This document shows, in pieces, positions 3,175 through 15,307 of a DNA stretch of 64,000 nt; the stretch's first letter is position 1, and every line of letters starts with the position of its first letter. This stretch comes from Phycisphaerales bacterium (GTDB lineage Bacteria > Planctomycetota > Phycisphaerae > Phycisphaerales > SM1A02): the NCBI GenBank assembly GCA_036475395.1, contig JAZFYE010000126.1, positions 6,850-70,849 on the forward strand. The letters are read 5' to 3'. Both the position numbers and the translations under genes were made by a program. Below the pieces are notes generated by a model. It saw only the letters and a program-made list of their open reading frames with translations. It had not been told where the DNA came from and did no database searches.

Positions 3175-5268
3175 CTAGTTCTCGAGAATCTTCTTGCCCT
3201 TCATCACGATGTCCTTCGACGCCTTTATGGTGATCTGGCCGGATCCCTTGATCGTGATGTCTTTCCCCTCGATGTTGATGGTGCCGTCCTTTTTCATCAG
3301 TATGCTGGCTTTTCCCGTCTTGATGAGAATCTGATCGCCAGCGTCGATCAGGATGTTCTTCTTAACCTTGGTAGTCTGATTGTTGCCAATCGTTATCGTG
3401 TCGTTGCCCTTGGTGACGGTGAGGTCCCGATCGCCCTCGGCGATGGTGATCGATTCGTTGCCCTTGCTGACCGTCTCGGTGCGGTTGCCCTCCGCGATGG
3501 TGATCGTTTCGTTGCCTTTGCTGACTGTCTCGGTGCGGTCGCCCTTCGCGATCGTAATCGTTTCGTCGCCTTCCTTGACCGTCTCGGTGCGGTTGTTCCA
3601 GATCTCGATCGTCTGGCTGCCGTCGTCTGAATCGGAGTTACCGACGACCAGGACCTGGTTGTTGTGGATCTCGATCGTCTGGTCACCCTTGTCCTTGTCA
3701 TCGAAGCCGACCTTCAGAGTGTCGTTGTTCTCGACGACCCTGTTGTAGTCCCTTTCAGCATGTACGTAAATTTCCTCCTTGTCCTTCTTGTCCTCAAAGC
3801 GGATCTCGTTGAAGTTGTCGCCGGACCCGTCCTTGCTGCTGCGCGACTTGAAACCGCTCTGCGTCTGGTTGTCCGGCAGCGCGTATGGGTACATGTTGTC
3901 GCCGTTGTAGACTCGCCCGGTGATGATCGGCCGATCGGGATCACCCTCAAGGAACTCGACGATCACTTCCTGGCCAATTCGCGGCAGGAACACGCCGCCC
4001 CAATTCGCTCCCGCCCACGGTTGTGAGACTCGAATCCAGCACGAACTCTCCTCATCCGATTCTCCGTATCTATCCCAGTGGAATTGCAGCTTGACGCGCC
4101 CGTGCTTCTCGGTCCAGATCTCCTCACCGTCCTTGCCCACCACCACCGCCGTCTGTGGTCCCTGAATCACCGGCTTAGGCGTGACGCGTGGAGGCCGAAA
4201 CGGCTGCGATGAATCCATCGCGCTGAACTGACACTGGAAGAACACGCCCCCGCCACCGCCAGCCGCCGAGTGATACAAGTCGGATTCGAAATGGATCGTC
4301 GTCGACATGACCAGGTACTCGCGTTCCTGGTCCTCGCGCGTATGGTCCGTCACCTTAAACGTGTACCCGGAGCAGATCCCCCAGGCATCTGATTCTGACG
4401 AGACGATCTCATGCGAGGCCTGGAGCTCCTGGATCCGGACCTTGGCGTAGCTGTCGCCGTCGGCGTTCTCAGTGTATTCACCGGGGTAGTCGAAGATCTC
4501 ATAGTCGGCGGCGGCGTGGTCGCGTTGGATGACTGACCTGGCAAGCAGGTCCTTCTTTGGCTTTTCAAAATCGTAATCGTTGAGCGCATAGACACCCGGC
4601 TGAATCGCCTGTTCGAGGGTCCAGCCGCCAATGTGCTCGATGGGGCTGGTGCTGCCGGCTGGTCGGTATGGAATCTCTTCGTAGCCGGGAAAGGTCTGGT
4701 GGGCGCTGAGGGAATCTGCGAGCACCAGCGTGTGCTTGCCCTCAGCATGCTCAAAGAAATAGTAGATTCCCTCCTGCTCCATCAGCCGGCTGACGAAGTT
4801 GAAATCCGTCTCGCGATACTGGACGCAGTATTCCCGGGTTCGGTAACTGCCGCTCAGTGAGTCGTCGAAATCGGTGAAGCCGGCGTCTCGAAAGACCTCC
4901 TTGATGATTTCGGGAACGGTCTTCTCCTGAAAGATTCTGCAGTCCGCGGTCCGGGTCAGGAGCCAGAGCCAGGGGACGATCGTCGCCTGGTACTCTGCGA
5001 GGTCACCTTCGGCGCGGGTCTGCACAAACCGACTGACGTAGCCGTTGAAGTAGCGCGTTCTGTCGTCCGGCAACTCGAGCTGAACGGTCATGTTCTGCCC
5101 CACGATGTCAGCAAAGTTGATACTCTGCTCTTCGCTGACCAGCGTGAGGTTGTAGTGAAACAGTCGGCTGAGCCGCTCTGTGCCGTTCATGCTCCTGAGC
5201 AAAAGAACGTCGTCGCCGAGCGGGCTGCTGACGGCCACTTTTCTGTATTGTTGTGTGTATTGAGGCAT
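3175..5268 (-). CDS. vgrG: T6SS spike protein VgrG (TssI)
   Basis: 697 aa with an ATG start. MPQYTQQYRKVAVSSPLGDDVLLLRSMNGTERLSRLFHYNLTL is a classic VgrG N-terminus. gp5 OB motif GQEVIVEFLEGDPDRPIITGRVYN is present. The C-terminus is a beta-helix of repeats (ETITIAEGNRTETVSKGN...). Confidence 0.95.
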   Translation of the reverse strand: MPQYTQQYRKVAVSSPLGDDVLLLRSMNGTERLSRLFHYNLTLVSEEQSINFADIVGQNMTVQLELPDDRTRYFNGYVSRFVQTRAEGDLAEYQATIVPWLWLLTRTADCRIFQEKTVPEIIKEVFRDAGFTDFDDSLSGSYRTREYCVQYRETDFNFVSRLMEQEGIYYFFEHAEGKHTLVLADSLSAHQTFPGYEEIPYRPAGSTSPIEHIGGWTLEQAIQPGVYALNDYDFEKPKKDLLARSVIQRDHAAADYEIFDYPGEYTENADGDSYAKVRIQELQASHEIVSSESDAWGICSGYTFKVTDHTREDQEREYLVMSTTIHFESDLYHSAAGGGGGVFFQCQFSAMDSSQPFRPPRVTPKPVIQGPQTAVVVGKDGEEIWTEKHGRVKLQFHWDRYGESDEESSCWIRVSQPWAGANWGGVFLPRIGQEVIVEFLEGDPDRPIITGRVYNGDNMYPYALPDNQTQSGFKSRSSKDGSGDNFNEIRFEDKKDKEEIYVHAERDYNRVVENNDTLKVGFDDKDKGDQTIEIHNNQVLVVGNSDSDDGSQTIEIWNNRTETVKEGDETITIAKGDRTETVSKGNETITIAEGNRTETVSKGNESITIAEGDRDLTVTKGNDTITIGNNQTTKVKKNILIDAGDQILIKTGKASILMKKDGTINIEGKDITIKGSGQITIKASKDIVMKGKKILEN
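3401..3616 (-). repeat. in-frame 54-bp tandem repeats (about 4 units) encoding the VgrG C-terminal beta-helix
   Basis: tcgttgcc recurs at 3401, 3455, 3509 and 3563, a 54-nt (18-aa) period. The corresponding protein units are KGDRTETVSKGNETITIA / EGNRTETVSKGNESITIA. Confidence 0.8.
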
Positions 5269-5653
5269 GGGCTGATACGTCCTCTACCTACAGGTCATCG
5301 AGAGCTGCTGGCCGTGGGGGCGGCAGCCTCAACCCGAATGGTGATGCCAACCGCCTACCAACGTGCCCCGGACAACGGAGCCTGACCGGCGGGGGGCTCG
5401 CACACCCGGCCTTGGGTCTGTGCGGCGCCGGCGCCTATCAAGACAGCCACTGGCGATTTGGCGTTCTTCCCTGCTGCCTTCCATTGGGATTCTTGTCTTC
5501 CCAGAGCCCGATTATTGTACAGGATCCTCTCGTCGCTGCACCGGGCAAAATGGGTTCGCTGGCGGCCTTTGGCTCGCTCTGGGGACAACGGTCCTGTGTA
5601 CTGCTGGCCGATGGCTCGACAGCGCCTCCAGGCCGCGTCTTGGGGCAGGACTC

Positions 5654-5724
5654 GGCCCGTCACCGTCGATTCCGGCCAGAATCAAGCGACTGGAACTTGG
5701 GTTTCCGGGGGCCGCGATGTTACA
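5654..5724 (+). repeat. copy A of a ~70-nt conserved element (inverted partner at 9829-9902)
   Basis: ggcccgtcaccgtcgattccggccagaatcaagcgactggaacttgggtttccgggggccgcgatgttaca. The reverse complement of 9829-9902 is nearly identical. It lies in the 900-bp non-coding gap between vgrG and ORF 6172. Confidence 0.85.
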
Positions 5725-6171
5725 ATAGTCACCGATGCGCACCTGGACAGGTATCTGGCTCAACCCAAATGGGGAATATCAGATAATTGAACCCTCGTGA
5801 GACACGTTTCCGAGCACGCCCAGATCGTGCCGAAAAACGGTGCCGCAGCGCGATCTGGGACTCGTGAACTGGCGTCACCTGCATGCTTGCCGCCCGCAGC
5901 GTCCGATTAAGCCAACGTAGTTCGGGACTCGGTGTGACCGGTCGTCTACCGCTACGGTTCGATGGCAACTGGCAGGCTTCGACTTCGGTCCGATGAAGCA
6001 GGTTCGTCGACCTCGCTTATCAATTTGATTGCGGAAACAGCTTCCGTTATACAATCCGCTAGTGTAATCTGACGGAGTGCCAGAGTTCAAATCATATTGT
6101 CGAATGCCCTCCTTGGATTGAATCCCTGGTAGGGCATAGAGGAATCCGCAGAGCCTTCTGGGAGAACCAAA

Positions 6172-7341
6172 ATGGGATGCAGAGTACCGGGCCCCCTTTG
6201 TATTTCGCGCAGCAACAGCGTCACCCCTGACAAACAAACCCTGGTGCGTGCGCGATCTCTTCCACCTGGCCCAACAGGCAGGGCTGCTGGACGATCACAG
6301 CCTGATGAATCGCACAATGAATTTTGGGGAGACGTTAAAGAAGAATTGAATGAGTTTTTGGAGGGTGTTAAAGAAGAAGCGAATGAATTTTGGGAAGGCG
6401 TTAAAGAGTGGACCGTTGAAGAGCCTCTCGCAATCTGGACCTTGGCGAAACTCTTCGATCAATGGGGTGAAATCAGTCACGAATGGTTCTGGAGGTTCCT
6501 CGCCCATTATCTCACCGGAGACGGTGAAGAGTTTAAGGAATTCAAGACGGTTCCATTCGAGTGGCAGAACGCGATTCGCAAAAACTGGCGAACGAGCCAA
6601 GTGTTTGCGGTTCAGAACAAGTACCCGACTCGCTATCCGAAGGGCAAGAAGTTTCGGATTAAACCGTATGACTGGAAGGGGCTCGATGACTTGACCCGGT
6701 CTCTTGGGCATTTCGATTTGACGTATTCCAAAAAAGATAAGAAAGAGACATACGTTATCGAAGACAGATACGAATTCAACTATTACGATGAAATGAACGG
6801 GAGCCTCTCGGAACATGGAGGGAAGAACGTGAAGCTTCCCAAGTGGTTATCCGAGCAGTTGCTCAGGCTAATGCCGCGAAATGAATACAAGGTTCCGGAG
6901 GGGACAGACAAGGGTAAAGTTCAGAAGTTTACAATGAAACAGAAAGACGAGGATACCTGGGACATTATTTTGCCAACAGGTTGGTTGCAAGAGAACGGTA
7001 AACCTTTTCAGTTTAGAGCCGAGTTTAGTTCCACATTTCACATCGAAGACTATATCGGGACGTTTGATGAAAGTGGGTTTTTTGCCGGCTTGGATGAAGA
7101 TGACTTAGCACATGACTTGATGTTCTTACGAAATTCGAATTCCGTAAGAAAGGTGTTTGAGTCTCTTCAGAAGAATCATGCATCCGAAGGCAAAGAAGTT
7201 GCCGAGCATTACATTCTCGGCTTAGCGGCTCGCCAGTCTTCACCAAAGCTCAGCGATCTGAAAGGCAAGACTAATCTCGTAGACCTGCTCAAAAGCGTTC
7301 TGAAGGATTCTCCCGTCGTTCAAAAGCTGAGTCAGTTGTAA
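6172..7341 (+). CDS. hypothetical protein in a low-GC stretch, with three N-terminal 11-aa repeats; candidate T6SS cargo or orphan gene
   Basis: 389-aa ORF. ATG 6172 is preceded by GGGAG 7 nt upstream. Composition is protein-like (K/E/F/W/Y rich). GC drops to about 43% in hand-counted lines at 6361 and 6901. I recognise no family. Confidence 0.6.
   Translation: MGCRVPGPLCISRSNSVTPDKQTLVRARSLPPGPTGRAAGRSQPDESHNEFWGDVKEELNEFLEGVKEEANEFWEGVKEWTVEEPLAIWTLAKLFDQWGEISHEWFWRFLAHYLTGDGEEFKEFKTVPFEWQNAIRKNWRTSQVFAVQNKYPTRYPKGKKFRIKPYDWKGLDDLTRSLGHFDLTYSKKDKKETYVIEDRYEFNYYDEMNGSLSEHGGKNVKLPKWLSEQLLRLMPRNEYKVPEGTDKGKVQKFTMKQKDEDTWDIILPTGWLQENGKPFQFRAEFSSTFHIEDYIGTFDESGFFAGLDEDDLAHDLMFLRNSNSVRKVFESLQKNHASEGKEVAEHYILGLAARQSSPKLSDLKGKTNLVDLLKSVLKDSPVVQKLSQL
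6316..6414 (+). repeat. 3 x 33-bp in-frame tandem repeat
   Basis: Encodes NEFWGDVKEEL / NEFLEGVKEEA / NEFWEGVKEWT. Confidence 0.8.
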
Positions 7342-7358
7342 CCCGCATCTGCAAACGC

Positions 7359-7931
7359 TCATCTGGCCGATGCCGCCTGAAGCAAATCGAAAAGAAAAGG
7401 GGTTAGGACTCGTGGTTTTGTGTTTTCTGAGCTGGACGAACTCTGGGGCGGCTCATCAAGGGAATGGCCGAGGTCGCCGCCGAACACGCGGTAACCACGC
7501 CGGTCGTATTCACAGCCGCCGGACATCGCGGGAACGTTGCATTTCAACCTTGTGGAGACGTAAGGCGAGACAGCGGGAAGCTCGTCCTTGGGGAAGTACA
7601 GCCTGATCCGGTCCGCAAGTTTGCCCGCAGCGCTGAGGGCATTGGAGCGGATCCATTGCACGCTTTCCTGATAGGCTTCGAGCGGACTCTGGCTGTCAAA
7701 TCGCCTCATGAAGTGGTGTTTTTGCCCATAGTCCAACCAGTGCCCAAGATTGAAAATGTCCCGGATATCTGTGGCCACAACAGCTACCGGCAATGTGGCC
7801 GAACTCAGGCCACGCACTAGCGGATGGCTCGAACAGGACGTGGCCAGTTCTTTAACGGCCTGAGCAATAAGTCTCTTGTGGCCTGCCAGGTCGCTCATCG
7901 TGACAACCCGGTTCCGTGGGCGACAGTTCAC
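7359..7931 (-). CDS. hypothetical protein, convergent with 6172-7341
   Basis: 190-aa ORF, or 179 aa from ATG 7898. Amino-acid composition is more protein-like than the antisense ORF 7464-7820. No convincing RBS and no recognised family. Confidence 0.4.
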   Translation of the reverse strand: MNCRPRNRVVTMSDLAGHKRLIAQAVKELATSCSSHPLVRGLSSATLPVAVVATDIRDIFNLGHWLDYGQKHHFMRRFDSQSPLEAYQESVQWIRSNALSAAGKLADRIRLYFPKDELPAVSPYVSTRLKCNVPAMSGGCEYDRRGYRVFGGDLGHSLDEPPQSSSSSENTKPRVLTPFLFDLLQAASAR

Positions 7932-8060
7932 CAGCCCGTGCCTGCATCTGACCGCCAGCAGAAATGCTGCTGCAGACGGTCACCGGTTACAGATCAGGCT
8001 ACCATAGAGGTATGAACCAAATCATGGCAAGATGAAACTTTGGCGGGATGAACCGGCATA

Positions 8061-9671
8061 GTGTCGGATTCGATCATGGGTGGCACCATGCCGGGACGGA
8101 TGGAATTCGAGTTTCAATTCAGCCAGGCCCAGGCGCGGCCGGCCGCTGCGAGCCGCGACAAGTGGCCGATGCGCATCCTGATCATGGGTGACTTCGGCGG
8201 GCGAGGCCACCGCGGACGGCCTGACGACGCGGCCCCTCTGGGCGATCGGCCCATCATGCGCGTGGACGTTGACAACTTTCAGGACGTGATGTATCGCGTT
8301 GCGCCGCAGCTGCATCTGCGGCTTGGCGGTGCATCCGGACCAGACATGACCGTCCAGTTCAGGCAGCTCGACGATTTTCACCCAGATCAGCTGTATGGAA
8401 AACTGGAAGTGTTTCTGGCCCTGCGGCAGTTGAGAACGCGCCTGCTGGATCCTGCGACCTTTGCCGAGGCGGCGGAGGAACTCAAACGTCCAGCGGGAAC
8501 CCAGACGGCGTCGACTCAACCGAGTGCAGGTTCCGGTGGTTCGGAGGCGGAGGCTGCGGCCGACGGCGTCGAATCGGAGTTTGAGCGGCTGTTGGGAGGC
8601 AAGCCGGTGGCGTCGCAGGCGCGGCCGGGAACCAGTGCCCACCCCGCAGCGCAGCCGGCCGGAGCGCAAGGCGACGTGATGCGGTTCATCCGGCACATTG
8701 TCGCGCCGCACGTTCTACCGGAAACCGATCCACAACAACGGCAGTTTGTGGCGTCGATCGACGTCATGACCGCAGAGCTGATGTGCGACGTCCTGCACGA
8801 CCCGGCCTTCCAGGCGCTGGAGTCGGCATGGCGCGCCGTGCACTGGCTCATAAGCAGGCTTGAAACAGGCCAGGAACTAGGAATCTACTTGCTTGACGCG
8901 ACCAGGGATGAATTGGCAGCGGACATCAGCGCGGTGGGTAGTGATCTGGAGGCCTCCAAAGCCCACCAGCTATTAGGCGAACAGAGCGTGCAGACGCCGG
9001 GGGGTCAGCCGTGGTCACTTCTGGTGGGCAACTTCACGTTTGGGACCCAACGGCATGACGTGGCGCTATTGGCGGCGCTCGGCGCCATCGCTTCACAAGC
9101 CGGTGGGCCGTTTCTCGCGAAGGCCGAGCCGGGTGTCTTGGGTTGCCGTAGCCTGGTCGAGACCCCGGACCCACACGACTGGCGGCTCGACGATCCCGCC
9201 ACCGAAAAGCGCTGGCAGGCACTGCGCACCAGCTCCGGGGCGTCCTGGATCGGACTGGCGCTGCCGCGCGTGATGCTTCGCCTGCCGTACGGCCGCCAGA
9301 CCGACCCGATCGAGCGGTTCGAATTCGAGGAACTCTCGCACCGGCGTGAACACGAGGCGTATCTCTGGGGCAACCCGGCGTTTGCCTGCGCGATGCTGAT
9401 CGCGATGTCGTTCCAGGAACAAGGTTGGTCCATGCGACTGGGCGACCACCTGGTTATCGATGATCTTCCCGTACACACCTACAAGAACAACGCGGACGAA
9501 TCGACCATGAAGCCGTGTGCAGAGGTCTGCCTCAGTGAGAGCGGCGCCGAGGCGATCCTGAAACGCGGTGTCATGCCCGTGATGAGCTATCGCAACCGAA
9601 ATGCAGTTCGCGTGATGCGGTTCCAGTCCGTGGCGGATCCACCGGCACCGCTGGCCGGCCCCTGGGGGTGA
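8061..9671 (+). CDS. single-chain TssB-TssC-like (VipA-VipB-like) sheath-derived fusion protein lacking the TssC C-terminal ~130 aa
   Basis: The N-terminal part parallels the canonical TssB of this window: PMRILIMGDFGG / MRVDVDNFQDVM / VQFRQLDDFHPDQL versus LPFVMGVMADLSG / LEIDVDNFDDRM / ITFESMDDFSPAAV. After a low-complexity linker it parallels TssC: HDPAFQALESAWRAVHWLI, GGQPWSLLVGNFTFG, LALPRVMLRLPYG versus HHPNFQQVEGSWRGLHHLV, GGEPYGCLIGDYDFD, LTMPRFLSRLPYG. The start is uncertain: GTG 8061, or ATG at 8076, 8088 or 8100. Confidence 0.8.
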   Translation: MSDSIMGGTMPGRMEFEFQFSQAQARPAAASRDKWPMRILIMGDFGGRGHRGRPDDAAPLGDRPIMRVDVDNFQDVMYRVAPQLHLRLGGASGPDMTVQFRQLDDFHPDQLYGKLEVFLALRQLRTRLLDPATFAEAAEELKRPAGTQTASTQPSAGSGGSEAEAAADGVESEFERLLGGKPVASQARPGTSAHPAAQPAGAQGDVMRFIRHIVAPHVLPETDPQQRQFVASIDVMTAELMCDVLHDPAFQALESAWRAVHWLISRLETGQELGIYLLDATRDELAADISAVGSDLEASKAHQLLGEQSVQTPGGQPWSLLVGNFTFGTQRHDVALLAALGAIASQAGGPFLAKAEPGVLGCRSLVETPDPHDWRLDDPATEKRWQALRTSSGASWIGLALPRVMLRLPYGRQTDPIERFEFEELSHRREHEAYLWGNPAFACAMLIAMSFQEQGWSMRLGDHLVIDDLPVHTYKNNADESTMKPCAEVCLSESGAEAILKRGVMPVMSYRNRNAVRVMRFQSVADPPAPLAGPWG

Positions 9672-9696
9672 TACCGTCCGACTCACCGCATGGTGC

Positions 9697-9712
9697 TGCG
9701 TCAATTGACGCA
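9697..9712. promoter_or_regulatory. perfect 16-bp palindrome TGCGTCAATTGACGCA (operator-like or hairpin)
   Basis: Read directly from the sequence, 26 nt after the stop of 8061-9671. There is no flanking U-tract on either strand, so it is not a classical terminator. Confidence 0.25.
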
Positions 9713-9828
9713 AAAGTGAACATGGTCATCGTGGCCCGACACGGTCCAGTTCTGACCTAGCTTCTTCTTGACCGACACTTCCCATTTGACCTTCGCTCGA
9801 CTCCACCGCCGAGCTTTCCGAGCACGAG

Positions 9829-9902
9829 TGTAACCGCCCCCCCCCGGAAACCCAAGTTCCAGTCGCTTGCTGCTGACCGGAATCGACGGTGACAGGCGGG
9901 CC
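9829..9902 (-). repeat. copy B of the ~70-nt conserved element, inverted relative to copy A
   Basis: Reverse complement: ggcccgcctgtcaccgtcgattccggtcagcagcaagcgactggaacttgggtttccgggggggggcggttaca. It differs from copy A at only a few positions. Confidence 0.85.
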
Positions 9903-9961
9903 CAGAAAAAGATTCCCCTCCCCTTTTCTTGCCAGCCATGAACAGTTCGCGCTGTAGATCA

Positions 9962-10642
9962 TTAGAAGAAGAAGGGTACTGGCAATTCGATTTGCCCCCA
10001 CATCTTTGACGTAACGATCACCTTGCATGGCATATAGTCGAACAGTGGCCGCTCACTCTGACCAGGGTAGTGGAACAGACTCTTCGCTTTCTGAGCGAGG
10101 GCCGAAAGGTTCGGCCTCTGTTGTGGTTTCGCATTGTAGGGCCACGGATTCTCGGAATTGAGGACTTTCACGCGGACCTCGAAACGATAAGCATCTGTGG
10201 TCTTGCTCCGACTACAATGCTGTTGCAATCCGGCCTTGATCATATCGGTCACGGCCCCCCAAGCTGCCTGGCCCGTCGCCTTGTTCTCGATGAATATGTG
10301 CTGCATTCCTCTTTTCGATTCCCACTTTACTTTGACGTCCGGGTTGGTGTTCGTCCGAATACACATGTGCCCGTGCCCTCCGAAGTGGTTGAGCGCTTGC
10401 GTCAACGTTTCCAGCTCGAACGTCTTCGCTTGCAATTGGATATCCACGTCTGCGGCCCACTTCTTTAGACCGAGTGCCTGTTTCTCGGCGTGCTTCTCAT
10501 TCTTTAGATCATCGGGATGGCTCCCGACGTAGGCCCTTGCATACCCGCTGATATACTTTAGCAATCCAAAGGCATTTCCCACTTCTTGTCTGCACCTCAT
10601 CAGGGAACCGTGCGCTTCCTTCAAGTCACTGTCGATTGTCAT
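9962..10642 (-). CDS. hypothetical protein (orphan, about 50-55% GC)
   Basis: 226 aa. ATG 10642 has GGGGAGGA 8-9 nt upstream. Composition is protein-like. No recognised family. Confidence 0.65.
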   Translation of the reverse strand: MTIDSDLKEAHGSLMRCRQEVGNAFGLLKYISGYARAYVGSHPDDLKNEKHAEKQALGLKKWAADVDIQLQAKTFELETLTQALNHFGGHGHMCIRTNTNPDVKVKWESKRGMQHIFIENKATGQAAWGAVTDMIKAGLQQHCSRSKTTDAYRFEVRVKVLNSENPWPYNAKPQQRPNLSALAQKAKSLFHYPGQSERPLFDYMPCKVIVTSKMWGQIELPVPFFF

Positions 10643-10714
10643 ATTGTAGTTCCTCCCCGACCATTATCGATATCATTGGAATGATAGTAACCATCTCGCT
10701 GGCGAACTGATAAC

Positions 10715-10727
10715 TGATAGGAATTCT
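10715..10727 (-). promoter_or_regulatory. shared 13-mer TGATAGGAATTCT upstream of orphan gene 9962-10642
   Basis: An identical 13-mer recurs at 11795-11807 upstream of the next orphan gene. It contains the near-palindrome AGGAATTCT. A partial extra copy (gaatgatag) is at 10679-10687. Confidence 0.3.
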
Positions 10728-11015
10728 GATCCCCCGTCACGCCTGATGCAACCATGCGACCGCCCTTCTTGCGACTTTGTCCACCCTCGTTTCACCCCTT
10801 CGTCATCTAGTTTTGAGATGGGATCGCGGTTTTCGACCGCGATCTTGCTGCCTGTCTGACGCCGGAGCGTGCGTCGGTCGTGGGGCGGGCGCGGAATGGT
10901 GCCGGTTGGCAGTTCGTCATCGCACCCATACGGCGAACCTTAGGTCGAATCCCCGCTTCTGATTCCTACTCGCGATCTTCCTGCTGTCCAATCTCCCCAT
11001 ATTCCCCTTTCTTGG

Positions 11016-11600
11016 CTATCTCCACCGGGGTTTCGATCCCGAAGGTGGTGGGAGAACGATTCGGGTTTCGTAGGACGCAGTGCCGAGTCCGGGACCGGCA
11101 TGGAATTCTTTGATATCTACTGTGGCGCCCCGAATCGATATCCTGAACGCAAAAATGGTCGGAGCGATCCTAAGAATCCGTCGGATGATCTCATAACCGG
11201 AATTCGACACAACTGCTTGGGGGACCTCCTTGTTGCGGTAGGTAAAAAGCTGTTTGGTTATGATGTGCCCTTCGGCGTTGATTGCCTTCTTTGGCATTCC
11301 GTGCTCGTCTGGCACCTGGTTCGTGTCGCGGAGCCAACCTCGTTGGTCGTTCGTTGCCAGCTGGCGAAAACATCCGTCACGATAAAATGTCTTCACCAGC
11401 TCTTGGATGTCGCAGCCCCGTCTTCTCGAATCTAGCCAGTCCCAGGTGTGGATCACGTTGATCCCAACGTTGTCAGTACCGACACGATCATTTTCTTTTG
11501 CCATCCTCCATCTGGTCGGTTCGCCCAACTGCTGGCTGTCGCGAGCGGCGAGTTTTGCCATTTGTGCCATACTAAAGCGGGGGGGCGGGACTCTACTCAT
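11016..11600 (-). CDS. hypothetical protein (orphan)
   Basis: 194 aa. ATG 11600 has AAGGAG 6 nt upstream. No recognised family. Confidence 0.65.
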   Translation of the reverse strand: MSRVPPPRFSMAQMAKLAARDSQQLGEPTRWRMAKENDRVGTDNVGINVIHTWDWLDSRRRGCDIQELVKTFYRDGCFRQLATNDQRGWLRDTNQVPDEHGMPKKAINAEGHIITKQLFTYRNKEVPQAVVSNSGYEIIRRILRIAPTIFAFRISIRGATVDIKEFHAGPGLGTASYETRIVLPPPSGSKPRWR

Positions 11601-12472: not shown

Positions 12473-15307
12473 TCAGTCGAACGCATACGCAAACTGGCCG
12501 TCCGCCGCGCTCACCTGAACGCGGTCGATCTGCTCACCTTCCATCATGCGCGTCAGGAATTCGTGGCTGATCTCCGGCAGCAACGTGTGGGTAAGGATCG
12601 CGTCCACCATGCGAGCGCCGCTCTCCACCTCGGTGCATCGGTCCGCGATCAGATCGATCACCGCGTCATCGTACATGAAGGGAACCTGGTGCTGCTCTTG
12701 CAGACGGTTCTCGATCCGTTTCAACTGGAGACGGATGATCAACTGGATCATCTCGTCGCCGAGCGGAAAGTAGGGAACCACCACGAGCCTGCCCAGGAGG
12801 GCCGCGGGGAAGACCTTGCGCAGCGGCTCGCGCAAGGCTTTGGCGATGCCTTGCGGATCGGGCATCAGCTCGGGATCCTTGCACATGTTCATGATGAGAT
12901 CAGAGCCGACATTGCTGGTCAGCAGGATGATCGTGTTCTTGAAGTCGATCAGCCGGCCCTCACCGTCTTCCATCCTCCCCTTGTCGAAAACTTGGTAGAA
13001 GATCTCATGCACATCGGGGTGGGCTTTTTCGACCTCATCGAGCAAGACGATGCTGTAGGGTCGCCGACGCACGGCCTCGGTCAGAACGCCGCCCTCGCCA
13101 TAGCCGACGTAACCGGGCGGAGCGCCCTTGAGGGTCGAGACCGTGTGCGCTTCCTGAAACTCGCTCATGTTGATGGTGATGACGTTCTGCTCACCGCCGT
13201 AGAGCACTTCAGCGAGGGCCAGGGCGGATTCGGTCTTGCCGACGCCGGACGGGCCCACCAGAAGGAACACGCCGACCGGCCGAGCGGGATTGTCCAGACG
13301 GGCCCGTGAAGTCTGGATGCGCTTTGCGAGTGCCTCAAGCGCGTGCCGCTGGCCAATCACACGCTGCTCCATGGTATCCGCCAGGTTGAGCACCGCTTCG
13401 ATCTCGTTCTTGACCATTCGACCGACGGGGATGCCTGTCCAGTCGGCGACAACTGAAGCGATGGCTTGCTCGTCAACGCTGGGAAGGATCAGTGGATCCT
13501 CGCCCTGGAACTCTTCCAGCTGCGCCTGAAGCCCCCGCAACTCGTCCAGTAGTGCTTGGCGTTGCTCTGCAGTGAGCGGCTCATTATTGCCGCCGTCCCC
13601 AATCGGCGCCGTGGCGGCCACAGTGACCGAAGTTGGGTCGGCCACCGCGCTGGCGACACCGTCGCTCGAATCGACCGGCGGAATCCCCGATCCGCCTTCG
13701 CTGCCCATTTCTTGTTGCTCTGCGTCATCGGCTTCGCTCTCAATCGTACCGGGGGGCTCTTGGCGCAGCTTGCCGCGAATATCAAGGATCTTGCTCACGA
13801 GCTCCCGTTCGGTCCTCCAGCGCTCTTCCAATTCAGACACGCGATTTCGTTCACTTTCGAGTCGTTCGGCGATCTCGGTCCGACGCGCCTCGTGATCCAA
13901 GCCGACCCGCACCTCCCGATCGATGATTTCCAACTCGGTCTCCAGCGCTGCGATGCATCGCCGACAATCGTCAACCTTGGCAGGTGTCGCGTGCTGTGAG
14001 ATCCCCACCCGCGCGCAGGTCGTATCCAGTACGCTGACCGCTTTGTCTGGCAGTTGGCGGTCAGCGATGTACCGATGGGAAAGCCGCACCGCCGCCACCA
14101 ACGCCTCGTCAAGAATCTGAACCTCGTGGTGCTTCTCCAGGGTTGAAGCGAGTCCCCGCATCATCCCTACCGCCTTTTCCTCGGACGGCTCATCCACCTT
14201 GACAACCTGAAATCGCCTGGTGAGCGCAGGATCTTTCTCGATGTACTTCTTGTACTCACCCCACGTTGTGGCGGCCACCGTCCGCAAGGTCCCGCGGGCG
14301 AGCGCAGGCTTGAGCAAATTGGCGGCGTCACCCTGTCCGGCTGCACCACCGGCCCCGATGAGGGTGTGCGCCTCGTCAATAAACAGAATGATGGGCTTGG
14401 GCGAGGCGTGGACTTCCTCTATGACCTGCTTCAGGCGGTTCTCGAACTCGCCCTTCATGCTCGCTCCAGCTTGGAGGAGTCCAAGGTCCAGAGCCCGCAG
14501 GGAGACATCTCGCAGGGCCGGTGGAACGTCGCCCGCCGCGATGCGAAGCGCGAAGCCCTCGACTACCGCTGTCTTGCCCACGCCCGCCTCCCCGGTCAGG
14601 ATCGGGTTGTTCTGTCGCCGACGCATCACGATGTCGACGATCTGCCGAATCTCCCCGTCCCGTCCGACAATCGGGTCAATCTCCCCGTTGCGAGCCTTCT
14701 CGGTAAGGTCAACGGAGAATCTCGCCAGCGCCTCCTGCTTTCCCATCTGGGCAGGTGGGACCGCTCCGCTCGCTTCCCCTGGCGACACGCCGCCTCCCAC
14801 CGCCGAGCCATCGGAAGCGACCAGCGTGTCCTCGACGGACCCACCGACGATCTTGTCAAACGAATCGCTGAGCTCCTCAGCCTTTACGCGGGCGAACTCG
14901 TTGGAGATCGCCAACAGCACGCTACGGAGTCCCGGCGTCTTGAGAATCCCGACCAGAACATACCCCGTGCGAACAACCGAATCGCCAAACATGAGGGTGC
15001 TGTACGTCCATCCCTCGCGTACCGCTTCCTCAAGGTGCGGGGAAAAATCCGAAATCGACGTCGCGCCGCGTGGCAATGCGTCAAGCGACGCGGTCAGGTC
15101 TGTTGCCAGTCGCGACGGATCGATATCGAAGTGATCAACAATCCGATGCCAGTCGGTGTTCTGCGTCTGCAACAGCTGATGAATCCAGTGTGATAACTCA
15201 ACATACGGGTTGCCACGCATCTTGCAGAACACCGTCGCCGCTTCGACGGATTTGTAGGCGAGGCTGTTGAGTTTACCAAAGAGGGATGCCCGGGGGATTT
15301 CTGCCAT
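12473..15307 (-). CDS. clpV: T6SS AAA+ ATPase ClpV (TssH)
   Basis: 944 aa with an ATG start. Clp N-domain start MAEIPRASLFGKLNSLAYKSVEAA. Two Walker A motifs, GEAGVGKTAVVEG and GPSGVGKTESALALAE. It sits after tssG. Confidence 0.95.
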   Translation of the reverse strand: MAEIPRASLFGKLNSLAYKSVEAATVFCKMRGNPYVELSHWIHQLLQTQNTDWHRIVDHFDIDPSRLATDLTASLDALPRGATSISDFSPHLEEAVREGWTYSTLMFGDSVVRTGYVLVGILKTPGLRSVLLAISNEFARVKAEELSDSFDKIVGGSVEDTLVASDGSAVGGGVSPGEASGAVPPAQMGKQEALARFSVDLTEKARNGEIDPIVGRDGEIRQIVDIVMRRRQNNPILTGEAGVGKTAVVEGFALRIAAGDVPPALRDVSLRALDLGLLQAGASMKGEFENRLKQVIEEVHASPKPIILFIDEAHTLIGAGGAAGQGDAANLLKPALARGTLRTVAATTWGEYKKYIEKDPALTRRFQVVKVDEPSEEKAVGMMRGLASTLEKHHEVQILDEALVAAVRLSHRYIADRQLPDKAVSVLDTTCARVGISQHATPAKVDDCRRCIAALETELEIIDREVRVGLDHEARRTEIAERLESERNRVSELEERWRTERELVSKILDIRGKLRQEPPGTIESEADDAEQQEMGSEGGSGIPPVDSSDGVASAVADPTSVTVAATAPIGDGGNNEPLTAEQRQALLDELRGLQAQLEEFQGEDPLILPSVDEQAIASVVADWTGIPVGRMVKNEIEAVLNLADTMEQRVIGQRHALEALAKRIQTSRARLDNPARPVGVFLLVGPSGVGKTESALALAEVLYGGEQNVITINMSEFQEAHTVSTLKGAPPGYVGYGEGGVLTEAVRRRPYSIVLLDEVEKAHPDVHEIFYQVFDKGRMEDGEGRLIDFKNTIILLTSNVGSDLIMNMCKDPELMPDPQGIAKALREPLRKVFPAALLGRLVVVPYFPLGDEMIQLIIRLQLKRIENRLQEQHQVPFMYDDAVIDLIADRCTEVESGARMVDAILTHTLLPEISHEFLTRMMEGEQIDRVQVSAADGQFAYAFD

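Follow-up and report, generated by a model that had tools for sequence, protein, structure and literature searches.

Copies A and B, the two arms of an inverted repeat in the window (the whole 64,000-nt stretch of DNA analyzed), probably belong to a family of dispersed, portable modules, each consisting of a regulated promoter and a conserved 5′ leader placed before unrelated genes. We put the probability of this reading, which comes from comparing sequences and includes the view that the genes served are largely accessory and often exported, at roughly 0.6. The arms, at 5655-5711 (+) and 9841-9897 (-), span 57 nt and are 93% complementary, as seen with a repeat finder and by reading both loci, and their similarity is far beyond chance. 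The motif GTTACA is located at 5719-5724 and 9834-9829. A second block of the form CAAATGGG(G/A)A is present in both copies (CAAATGGGGA at 5766-5775 and CAAATGGGAA at 9788-9779), 41 and 40 nt past GTTACA, respectively, and the stretch between differs. The core contains, as sequence, the hairpin CTGGAA-cttgggt-TTCCGG and the CCAG/TCAG...CTGG pairing, and the 12-mer tttccgagcacg occurs at both 5807-5818 and 9815-9826. A sequence-only reading of the window had described these features correctly, and had proposed a structured RNA (a small RNA, a cis-regulatory RNA or a guide-like RNA of a mobile element) rather than a bare recombination site. Our data support a cis-regulatory element, with the second block as the most conserved part of a probable transcribed 5′ leader.

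BLAST and profile HMM (nhmmer) searches detected ∼70 full or partial copies in the window's own genome (G000; a 3.89-Mb assembly in 437 contigs, 61% GC, 78% complete). Identity among dozens of these loci is 85-94% over 60-150 nt (BLAST, nhmmer). In the window itself, a relaxed profile search returned only copies A and B. The unit is conserved over ∼150 nt, and the majority of copies resemble copy B. Family alignments gave the consensus ...CTGTCACCGTCGATTCCGGTCAGAAGCAAGCGACTGGAACTTGGGTTTCC-G(4-9)-GCGTTACACTCGTGCTCGGAAAGCTCGGCGGTGGAGCCGGGCGAAGGTCAAATGGGAAATGTCGG, after which the sequences diverge.

The build of the element is modular. The portion to the left of GACTGGAAC exists in three versions: the first follows the conserved 3′ end of genes for a dockerin-like C-terminal domain, the second begins with CAAGAAAAGGGGACGGGAGTC, and the third has tandem AGGTGACAGCT repeats. 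Copies with only the left or only the right half exist besides full ones. Upstream of 'type iii' copies on G000 contigs C330, C76, C71, C45 and C248, three to five tandem 15-nt repeats (AGGTGACAGCTAGTC) sit ∼60-150 nt before the -35, and in the other left versions a GGTGACAG box is found once or twice, inverted. This GGTGACAG/AGGTGACAGCTAGTC box is a candidate regulator-binding site. C325, C17, C188, C341 and other contigs of G000 encode related secreted proteins whose C-terminus carries a dockerin-like motif twice (CPWDLDGSGxVGASDLLALLxxWGPC). The final ∼170 coding nucleotides of these genes and ∼110 nt of their 3′ flank are conserved along with the element that comes next.

Neither window copy has terminal inverted repeats of at least 8 nt, the left end of the element (CAAGAAAAGGGG...) is unrelated to its right end (...ATGTCGG), and no match to the end of a known IS or MITE, including the terminal inverted repeats of such families, was recognized. 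The view that the element is not a bare recombination site thus stands. We rejected the idea that A and B delimit a composite transposon or an invertible segment, because the two belong to a ∼70-copy family, lack terminal inverted repeats and have no recombinase nearby; for the annotation of the window, inverted repeats flanking the 4.1-kb segment are no evidence for an invertible or transposable unit. The proposed comparison with Rfam also identified no relevant family: Rfam 15, which includes JUMPstart and riboswitches, gave no relevant match at E ≤ 10 for window positions 4500-11500, and no match at E ≤ 5 for 10 element loci from 8 genomes.

Both window copies are longer than had been given. 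Copy A extends over ∼5617-5787 (+). Its upstream module (5617-5696, +; nhmmer, family-profile positions 4-93) carries the type-i left flank (cgacagcgcctccaggccgcGTCTTGGGGCAGGACTCGG), a CCGTCACC box and an imperfect dyad, TTCCGGCC...GACTGGAA, that terminates at the -35. The putative promoter follows at 5697-5726 (+), with TTGGGT (5697-5702), an 18-nt G-rich spacer and TACAAT (5721-5726). The leader (5727-5787, +) is of 'variant 2', a rarer alternative right half shared by copy A, the G000:C45 copy and two loci of genome G004, as defined by alignment with G000:C45, G004:C74 and G004:C283. In copy A the leader hairpin is decayed and has lost 3 of the 7 pairs seen in G000:C45; the conserved block CAAATGGGGAATATCAG lies at 5766-5782. 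Two covariance models were used, R1 for the whole unit and R2 for the leader alone, and copy A matched R2 weakly (19.7 bits). The homology upstream of vgrG in G004 ends at 5584, so that the element of copy A starts beyond this position. Copy A is situated, as described previously, in the gap between vgrG and ORF 6172, and the latter, the nearest long co-oriented ORF, starts 385 nt after it.

Copy B (9771-9931, -) is near-consensus. Its upstream module (9856-9931, -; nhmmer 142.9 bits, profile positions 7-147) has the type-ii left end (CAAGAAAAGGGGAGGGGAATCTTTTTCTGGG), a CTGTCACC box and the dyad TTCCGGTC...GACTGGAA. The putative promoter (9827-9855, -) shows TTGGGT (9855-9850), a 17-nt spacer with nine consecutive G residues and TACACT (9832-9827). 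The consensus leader (9771-9826, -; R2 match of 80.8 bits) is composed, in order, of CGTGCTCGGAAA, the hairpin GCTCGGC-GGTGGA-GTCGAGC (9814-9795) and GAAGGTCAAATGGGAAGTGTCGG (block 9788-9772). The differing stretch between GTTACA and the second block had been taken as the variable part of a conserved-variable-conserved architecture. We find instead that the middle of copy B is the family consensus and that of copy A is variant 2; the pattern arises from comparing two different right-half variants, and not from a variable guide segment.

The two copies lie in a type VI secretion system (T6SS) region, with genes for VgrG (3175-5268, -), a tssBC-like VipA/VipB fusion with Pfam VipA/VipB matches (8061-9671, +) and ClpV (12473-15307, -). 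The leader of copy B is aimed antisense at the 3′ end of the tssBC-like gene, and the left end of this copy (9931) lies ∼30 nt past the stop of ORF 9962-10642. The 12-mer tttccgagcacg at 5807-5818 (+) is the reverse complement of the consensus leader start CGTGCTCGGAAA, and by inspection the similarity around it is confined to the 12 nt; it may be the remnant of an oppositely oriented copy. The corresponding variable region of the orthologous T6SS locus in G004 carries two back-to-back copies and a variant-2 leader, at positions unlike those of A and B, and there the variant-2 leader directly precedes a 260-aa ORF. Copies A and B are probably orphans, by-products of cargo turnover in the vgrG-clpV variable region, copy A being a decaying copy without adjacent gene and copy B an orphan facing the end of the tssBC-like gene. 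Window positions 5819-5859, ∼35 nt past the copy A leader, contain a 9-bp inverted repeat (CCCAGATCG...CGATCTGGG) around a second small hairpin, with no T-run after it.

The 57-nt core is most likely promoter DNA, judging from its hexamers: TTGGGT, a G-rich spacer of mostly 15-17 nt, and TACACT. TTGGGT is separated from the -10 hexamer most often by 16 nt, and by 15-17 nt in 42 of 51 copies (82%), a spacing that would fit a sigma-70-type promoter, where 16-18 nt are expected. The -10 variants (TACACT, TACAAT, TATACT, TGCACT, and TATAGT in G000:C45) retain T1, A2 and T6, and TTG is retained at the -35 position. In the most divergent copies, GGAAC is lost and the -35 hexamer reads TTGACA or TTGACT. 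Copies with only the right half show other hexamer pairs at an equivalent distance from the leader, for example TTGACC-N17-TGCAAT, and homologues in other families have TATATT, TAGAAT or TATACT 11-12 nt ahead of the hairpin. The hexamers match the E. coli consensus at 7-8 of 12 positions, and a generic sigma-70 scan called the putative promoter of neither copy A nor copy B.

The G-run within the spacer is conserved across families, which is unusual for a sigma-70 spacer and could point to another sigma factor or to a different function. The length of this tract ranges from 4 to 9 among copies (G9 at window positions 9845-9837), and the differences move the hexamer spacing from 13 to 22 nt; the variable tract could tune or phase-vary promoter strength. 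GGAAC...CGTT in the core resembles an ECF-type promoter. An ECF-sigma promoter is nevertheless less likely, because AAC and CGT are most often 19 nt apart, exceeding the usual 16-17 by about 2-3 nt, and because divergent copies lose GGAAC and gain TTGACA or TTGACT.

The proposal of a structured RNA may hold for one half of the element only. In the core, the hairpins show no covariation beyond shuffles among 71 copies, and folding energies are ordinary (z between +1.2 and -1.4). In the leader, a 7-bp hairpin is followed by the near-invariant 15-mer AAUGGGAAAUGUCGG, and the hairpin covaries in order-wide homologues. With 32 order-wide sequences and the 7-pair hairpin, 11 double-change cells were observed vs. 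4.9 ± 1.9 in shuffles, and 0 of 500 shuffles attained the observed score; this alignment was fitted to the model and includes three near-identical copies from genome G078. Compensatory stem changes are exemplified by GGGA/CCC in G078 and CCUGG/CCAGG in G111. Among the 71 close copies, leader hairpin covariation is barely above shuffles, RNAalifold on close copies yields next to nothing, and fold z-scores are near -1. At the same position, variant 2 has another complementary stem. The 15-mer is nearly invariant among the order-wide homologues as well, and no pairing partner is predicted for it. An RNA beginning at the predicted start (∼7 nt past the -10) would read ...CUCGGAAA, the 7-bp hairpin and a purine-rich single strand with AAUGGGAAAUGUCGG. 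Conservation ends at GTCGG, often with a ribosome-binding site and ATG within the following 10-50 nt.

The same features could be read as the signature of a regulon acting at the DNA level only, in which the 150 nt would be promoter plus operator, the palindrome and the block would bind a repressor or activator, and RNA structure would be irrelevant. Palindromic DNA under repressor binding would yield the same pair pattern as an RNA hairpin. The sequence of stem and loop is strongly conserved rather than freely covarying, the 15-mer lacks a predicted partner, the upstream boxes (CTGTCACC and tandem AGGTGACAGCT) likewise resemble protein-binding sites, and the enrichment of the gene set for exported proteins is regulon-like. 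We nevertheless consider this reading unlikely: variant 2 swaps the stem for an unrelated complementary pair at the same position, homologues across the order show the compensatory changes given above, and the hairpin, 11-12 nt past -10 boxes that differ, coincides with the predicted RNA 5′ end. A DNA palindrome would still be compatible with each of these observations.

Three other interpretations of leader segments were considered. An upstream peptide beginning at the conserved ATG of CAAATGGG was rejected: its reading frame can be as short as 5 codons and differs in length between copies, several copies have CTG or ACG in place of the ATG, and TGA comes after it in two. A long-range pairing of CCGTCGATTCC with GGAAATGTCGG, seen by eye, would have its left arm upstream of the predicted start, and RNAalifold detected nothing. 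A leader bound by CsrA would be expected to have at least two GGA motifs near the translation start, one of them in a hairpin loop. GGA motifs occur in the leader (CGGAAA, the loop GGUGGA and UGGGAAA) and a CsrA gene is present at C279, but the loop of distant homologues is GGCGUA, without GGA, which weakens the idea of a CsrA site.

If the portable-module reading holds, RNA polymerase would start ∼7 nt past the TACACT box, itself 16 ± 1 nt downstream of TTGGGT. The upstream CTGTCACC box or boxes together with the TTCCGGTC...GACTGGAA dyad, or the tandem AGGTGACAGCT repeats, would be the likely regulator-binding region. A short stem-loop (GCYCGGC-loop-GCCGGGC) would lie only a few bases into the transcript, followed by a single-stranded purine-rich tail carrying the near-invariant AAUGGGAAAUGUCGG and then by the gene's own ribosome-binding site. 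The hairpin and invariant tail most likely work in the mRNA, for example by stabilizing its 5′ end or by docking a single trans-acting factor through which the whole set would be co-regulated. The family would spread and be reshuffled by recombination in variable gene islands, and would move between genera.

The position of the element relative to genes was scored in the 51 copies whose right end is intact and whose neighbor could be called. The next ORF is co-oriented in 45 of them (88%), at a median raw gap of 14 nt, a value affected by over-extended ORF starts. In the other six, copy B among them, the next gene is oppositely oriented. When 47 downstream ORFs were compared all-against-all by BLASTP, one cluster of 5 was obtained, sharing only a common C-terminal domain of ∼55 aa; duplication of a gene together with its upstream region was rejected, since the downstream ORFs are unrelated. 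Their Pfam domains are diverse and include S8 (subtilase) and S9 (prolyl oligopeptidase) peptidases, lipase 3 (class-3) and patatin, and other proteins encoded by downstream ORFs are a Tle1-like phospholipase, NHL/PEP-CTERM and BNR proteins and a thioredoxin-reductase fusion (TrxR-Grx). A hydrophobic N-terminus is predicted for 23 of 41 downstream proteins vs. 29.5% of background ORFs (p = 3e-4, by a crude test).

These data bear on the earlier proposal that the copies might be small RNA genes in their own right or encode a guide-like RNA belonging to a mobile element. A promoter-like region followed by ∼60 nt of conserved sequence with a hairpin would suit such a gene, as would the orphan copies A and B, which have no gene to serve. 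Terminator-like sites are absent after both copies, however, 88% of copies abut a co-oriented ORF, and the conserved sequence stops at GTCGG, usually with a ribosome-binding site and start codon within tens of bases. No transposase partner or associated nuclease gene was found with the copies, the downstream genes are unrelated, Rfam gave no match, and the 'variable segment' consists of two fixed variants rather than a diversifying guide. A discrete small RNA or guide RNA is, in our estimate, very improbable.

The copies cluster in variable islands, where they form same-orientation arrays with a spacing of 0.6-3.4 kb; the C339 island has 4 copies in 8.1 kb and the C17 island 5-6 copies in 7.4 kb. 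G004 has ∼3.7 kb of DNA without the element in place of both islands, within flanks of 75-78% identity. G000 and G003 have flanks that are 92% identical, and their synteny stops exactly at the left end of an element; the right end of one island falls 12 nt past an element. Islands close with an 'extra' element that lacks a gene behind it (C339:20351 and window copy B). A clean empty site between species was not found; the sole syntenic pair has the element in both, and whole islands differ.

Such an arrangement would suit a cassette boundary, that is, a DNA site for the capture, exchange and loss of gene blocks by an integron-like or other site-specific system, in which conservation reflects the recombinase and the promoter and leader features are secondary or coincidental. 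The arrays, the wholesale replacement in G004, the synteny breaks, the gene-less closing elements and a patchy occurrence across families with the element alone in common all speak for it. Against it, the best match to the integron integrase model TIGR02249 in G000 scored 81.8 bits vs. a cut-off of 265 bits in a genome that is 78% complete, and the element contains neither an attC-like long imperfect palindrome with R′′/L′′ and L′/R′ boxes nor terminal inverted repeats. The break points of partial copies are scattered, with starts at profile positions 23-26, 43-52, 59-62, 74-82, 88-95 and 104 and ends at 50-52, 76-78, 93 and 110-138; they are not confined to GTTACA, and a single crossover point is not seen. 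The strong orientation bias toward the start of the next gene, and the single copies upstream of genes in other families, also disagree with a mere boundary. The missing integrase, the lack of terminal inverted repeats and the scattered break points disfavor a classical MITE or attC site, and we hold the cassette-boundary explanation as a whole to be doubtful.

Elsewhere, the element was found in many copies in 4 of 4 other species of the genus. Of 150 other genomes in the order, 14 have homologues, with 1-9 matches each, and belong to families f2, f4, f5 and f6; promoter and leader are of low copy number in these 14 genomes. In the window's own family, models R1 and R2 detected the element in 0 of 39 other genomes. 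In a phylum-wide sample, 2 of 150 genomes besides G000 match, one of them within the same order. In G023, from another family, the element is 80-87% identical and the flanks are not shared; that the element alone is in common points to horizontal spread of the module. In G078, also from another family, contigs C4, C13, C65, C111 and C112 begin 30-44 nt ahead of a leader copy, suggesting a multi-copy family that breaks the assembly there. Two short contigs with near-consensus copies (L068 and L064) are binned in Alphaproteobacteria and Gemmatimonadetes MAGs, and are probably mis-binned Planctomycetota. The other carriers are labeled Planctomycetota or Phycisphaerae MAGs, and one carrier MAG, KW1-S15, comes from deep-sea ferromanganese-nodule sediment (PMC10367259); the idea of a sponge-symbiont origin was given up.

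A search of the literature on Planctomycetes promoters and repeats returned no relevant report. Putative mobile promoters (PMPs) have been defined by at least 80% identity over at least 50 nt before non-paralogous genes (Matus-Garcia, Nijveen and van Passel, 2012; PMC3575422). Some PMPs are common to different genera or families, most match no mobile element or Rfam family, their mobilization mechanism is unknown, and most PMP families are pairs (PMC3575422). The element family, with 85-94% identity over 60-150 nt upstream of different genes, and with a single cluster of 5, sharing a ∼55-aa domain, among 47 adjacent ORFs, fits this operational definition, and PMPs appear, from the sequences, to be the closest known kind. 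The family differs in having ∼50-70 members in a roughly 5-Mb genome rather than pairs, and in its interchangeable upstream parts, two leader variants, concentration in variable islands and order-wide leader motif.

Correia (Neisseria), ERIC and BOX repeats are 100-200 nt long, multi-copy and intergenic, can carry promoters, and enter mRNAs, altering expression or stability; BOX is modular, and Correia and ERIC, which can insert either way round, carry terminal inverted repeats and show target-site duplications. The element family is likewise multi-copy, intergenic, of similar length and promoter-like, and is modular as BOX is. In contrast to Correia and ERIC, it lacks terminal inverted repeats, and 88% of its copies face the next gene. 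Integron attC sites, for example the Vibrio cholerae repeats, follow promoterless cassettes and have a fixed crossover in GTT. Like attC arrays, the element is a species-specific repeat of ∼120-150 nt, ∼90% identical, between unrelated same-orientation genes in a variable region. The absence of IntI and of the R′′-L′′/L′-R′ palindrome, the scattered breaks and the spread of copies over many contigs set it apart, and the element, unlike attC, provides a promoter-like region 5′ of genes.

The JUMPstart/ops leader element is recognized by RfaH-type NusG paralogues. The family resembles it as a short conserved element near the start of the 5′ leader of many operons that are horizontally acquired and related to the cell surface or to secretion, and there is a loose likeness between ops (GGCGGTAG) and the hairpin loop (GGCGGTGGAG or GGCGGCGTAG); unlike JUMPstart, it has no Rfam match at E ≤ 5-10. 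G000:C97:12594-13082 (locus L158, 1252-2091, -) encodes a specialized, RfaH/UpxY-like NusG paralogue, with a DegT-family aminotransferase gene on one side and the gene of a LuxR-type response regulator on the other. Of 150 other genomes in the order, 55 have the paralogue. It is present in 9 of 14 leader-positive vs. 46 of 136 leader-negative genomes, and was not found in G023, a genome with many element copies. With this weak co-occurrence and the G023 counter-example, recruitment of the NusG paralogue in an RfaH/ops-like manner was set aside as a lead only.

5′-terminal stem-loops that stabilize mRNA, such as the E. coli ompA leader and the B. subtilis STAB-SD type, are single-gene features. 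Similarly to these, the leader would have a hairpin a few nt from the predicted 5′ end, followed by a purine-rich Shine-Dalgarno-like stretch (GAAGG, GGGAAA). It differs as a 70-copy family with a sequence-invariant tail, and the invariance of the tail suggests a specific partner rather than generic protection. A more far-reaching interpretation is that the hairpin and AAUGGGAAAUGUCGG form an undescribed, order-specific cis-regulatory RNA motif on a portable cassette-border promoter, read by a dedicated trans-acting factor. Under this interpretation the factor would be an RNA-binding protein, a NusG-like antiterminator or a small RNA that switches on a secretome or accessory program, and the whole would amount to a promoter-carrying counterpart of integron cassettes, exchanged between genera. 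We regard the combination as speculative and improbable.

If the reading of the family as portable promoter and leader modules is right, ∼1 gene in 50 of an uncultured marine Planctomycetota lineage would depend on one promoter and leader. The genes served would be mostly accessory, with many exported hydrolases and adhesin-like proteins, and some beside the T6SS cargo region. The family would then be an unusually large, modular case of promoter and leader 'reuse', and would offer a handle on a co-regulated secretome in a phylum in which promoters and post-transcriptional control are almost unstudied. The conserved 60-nt leader with its invariant 15-mer could be used to fish for a binding partner.

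A peculiar arrangement of the leader is found at G000:C29:896-970 (locus L101). Two leader fragments overlap there in inverted orientation and build a long palindrome, in the order reverse complement of the block, hairpin and block. Divergent genes flank the palindrome, one of them a PP2C/SpoIIE-like ORF, and it could be a bidirectional leader or provide an antisense partner of the invariant block.
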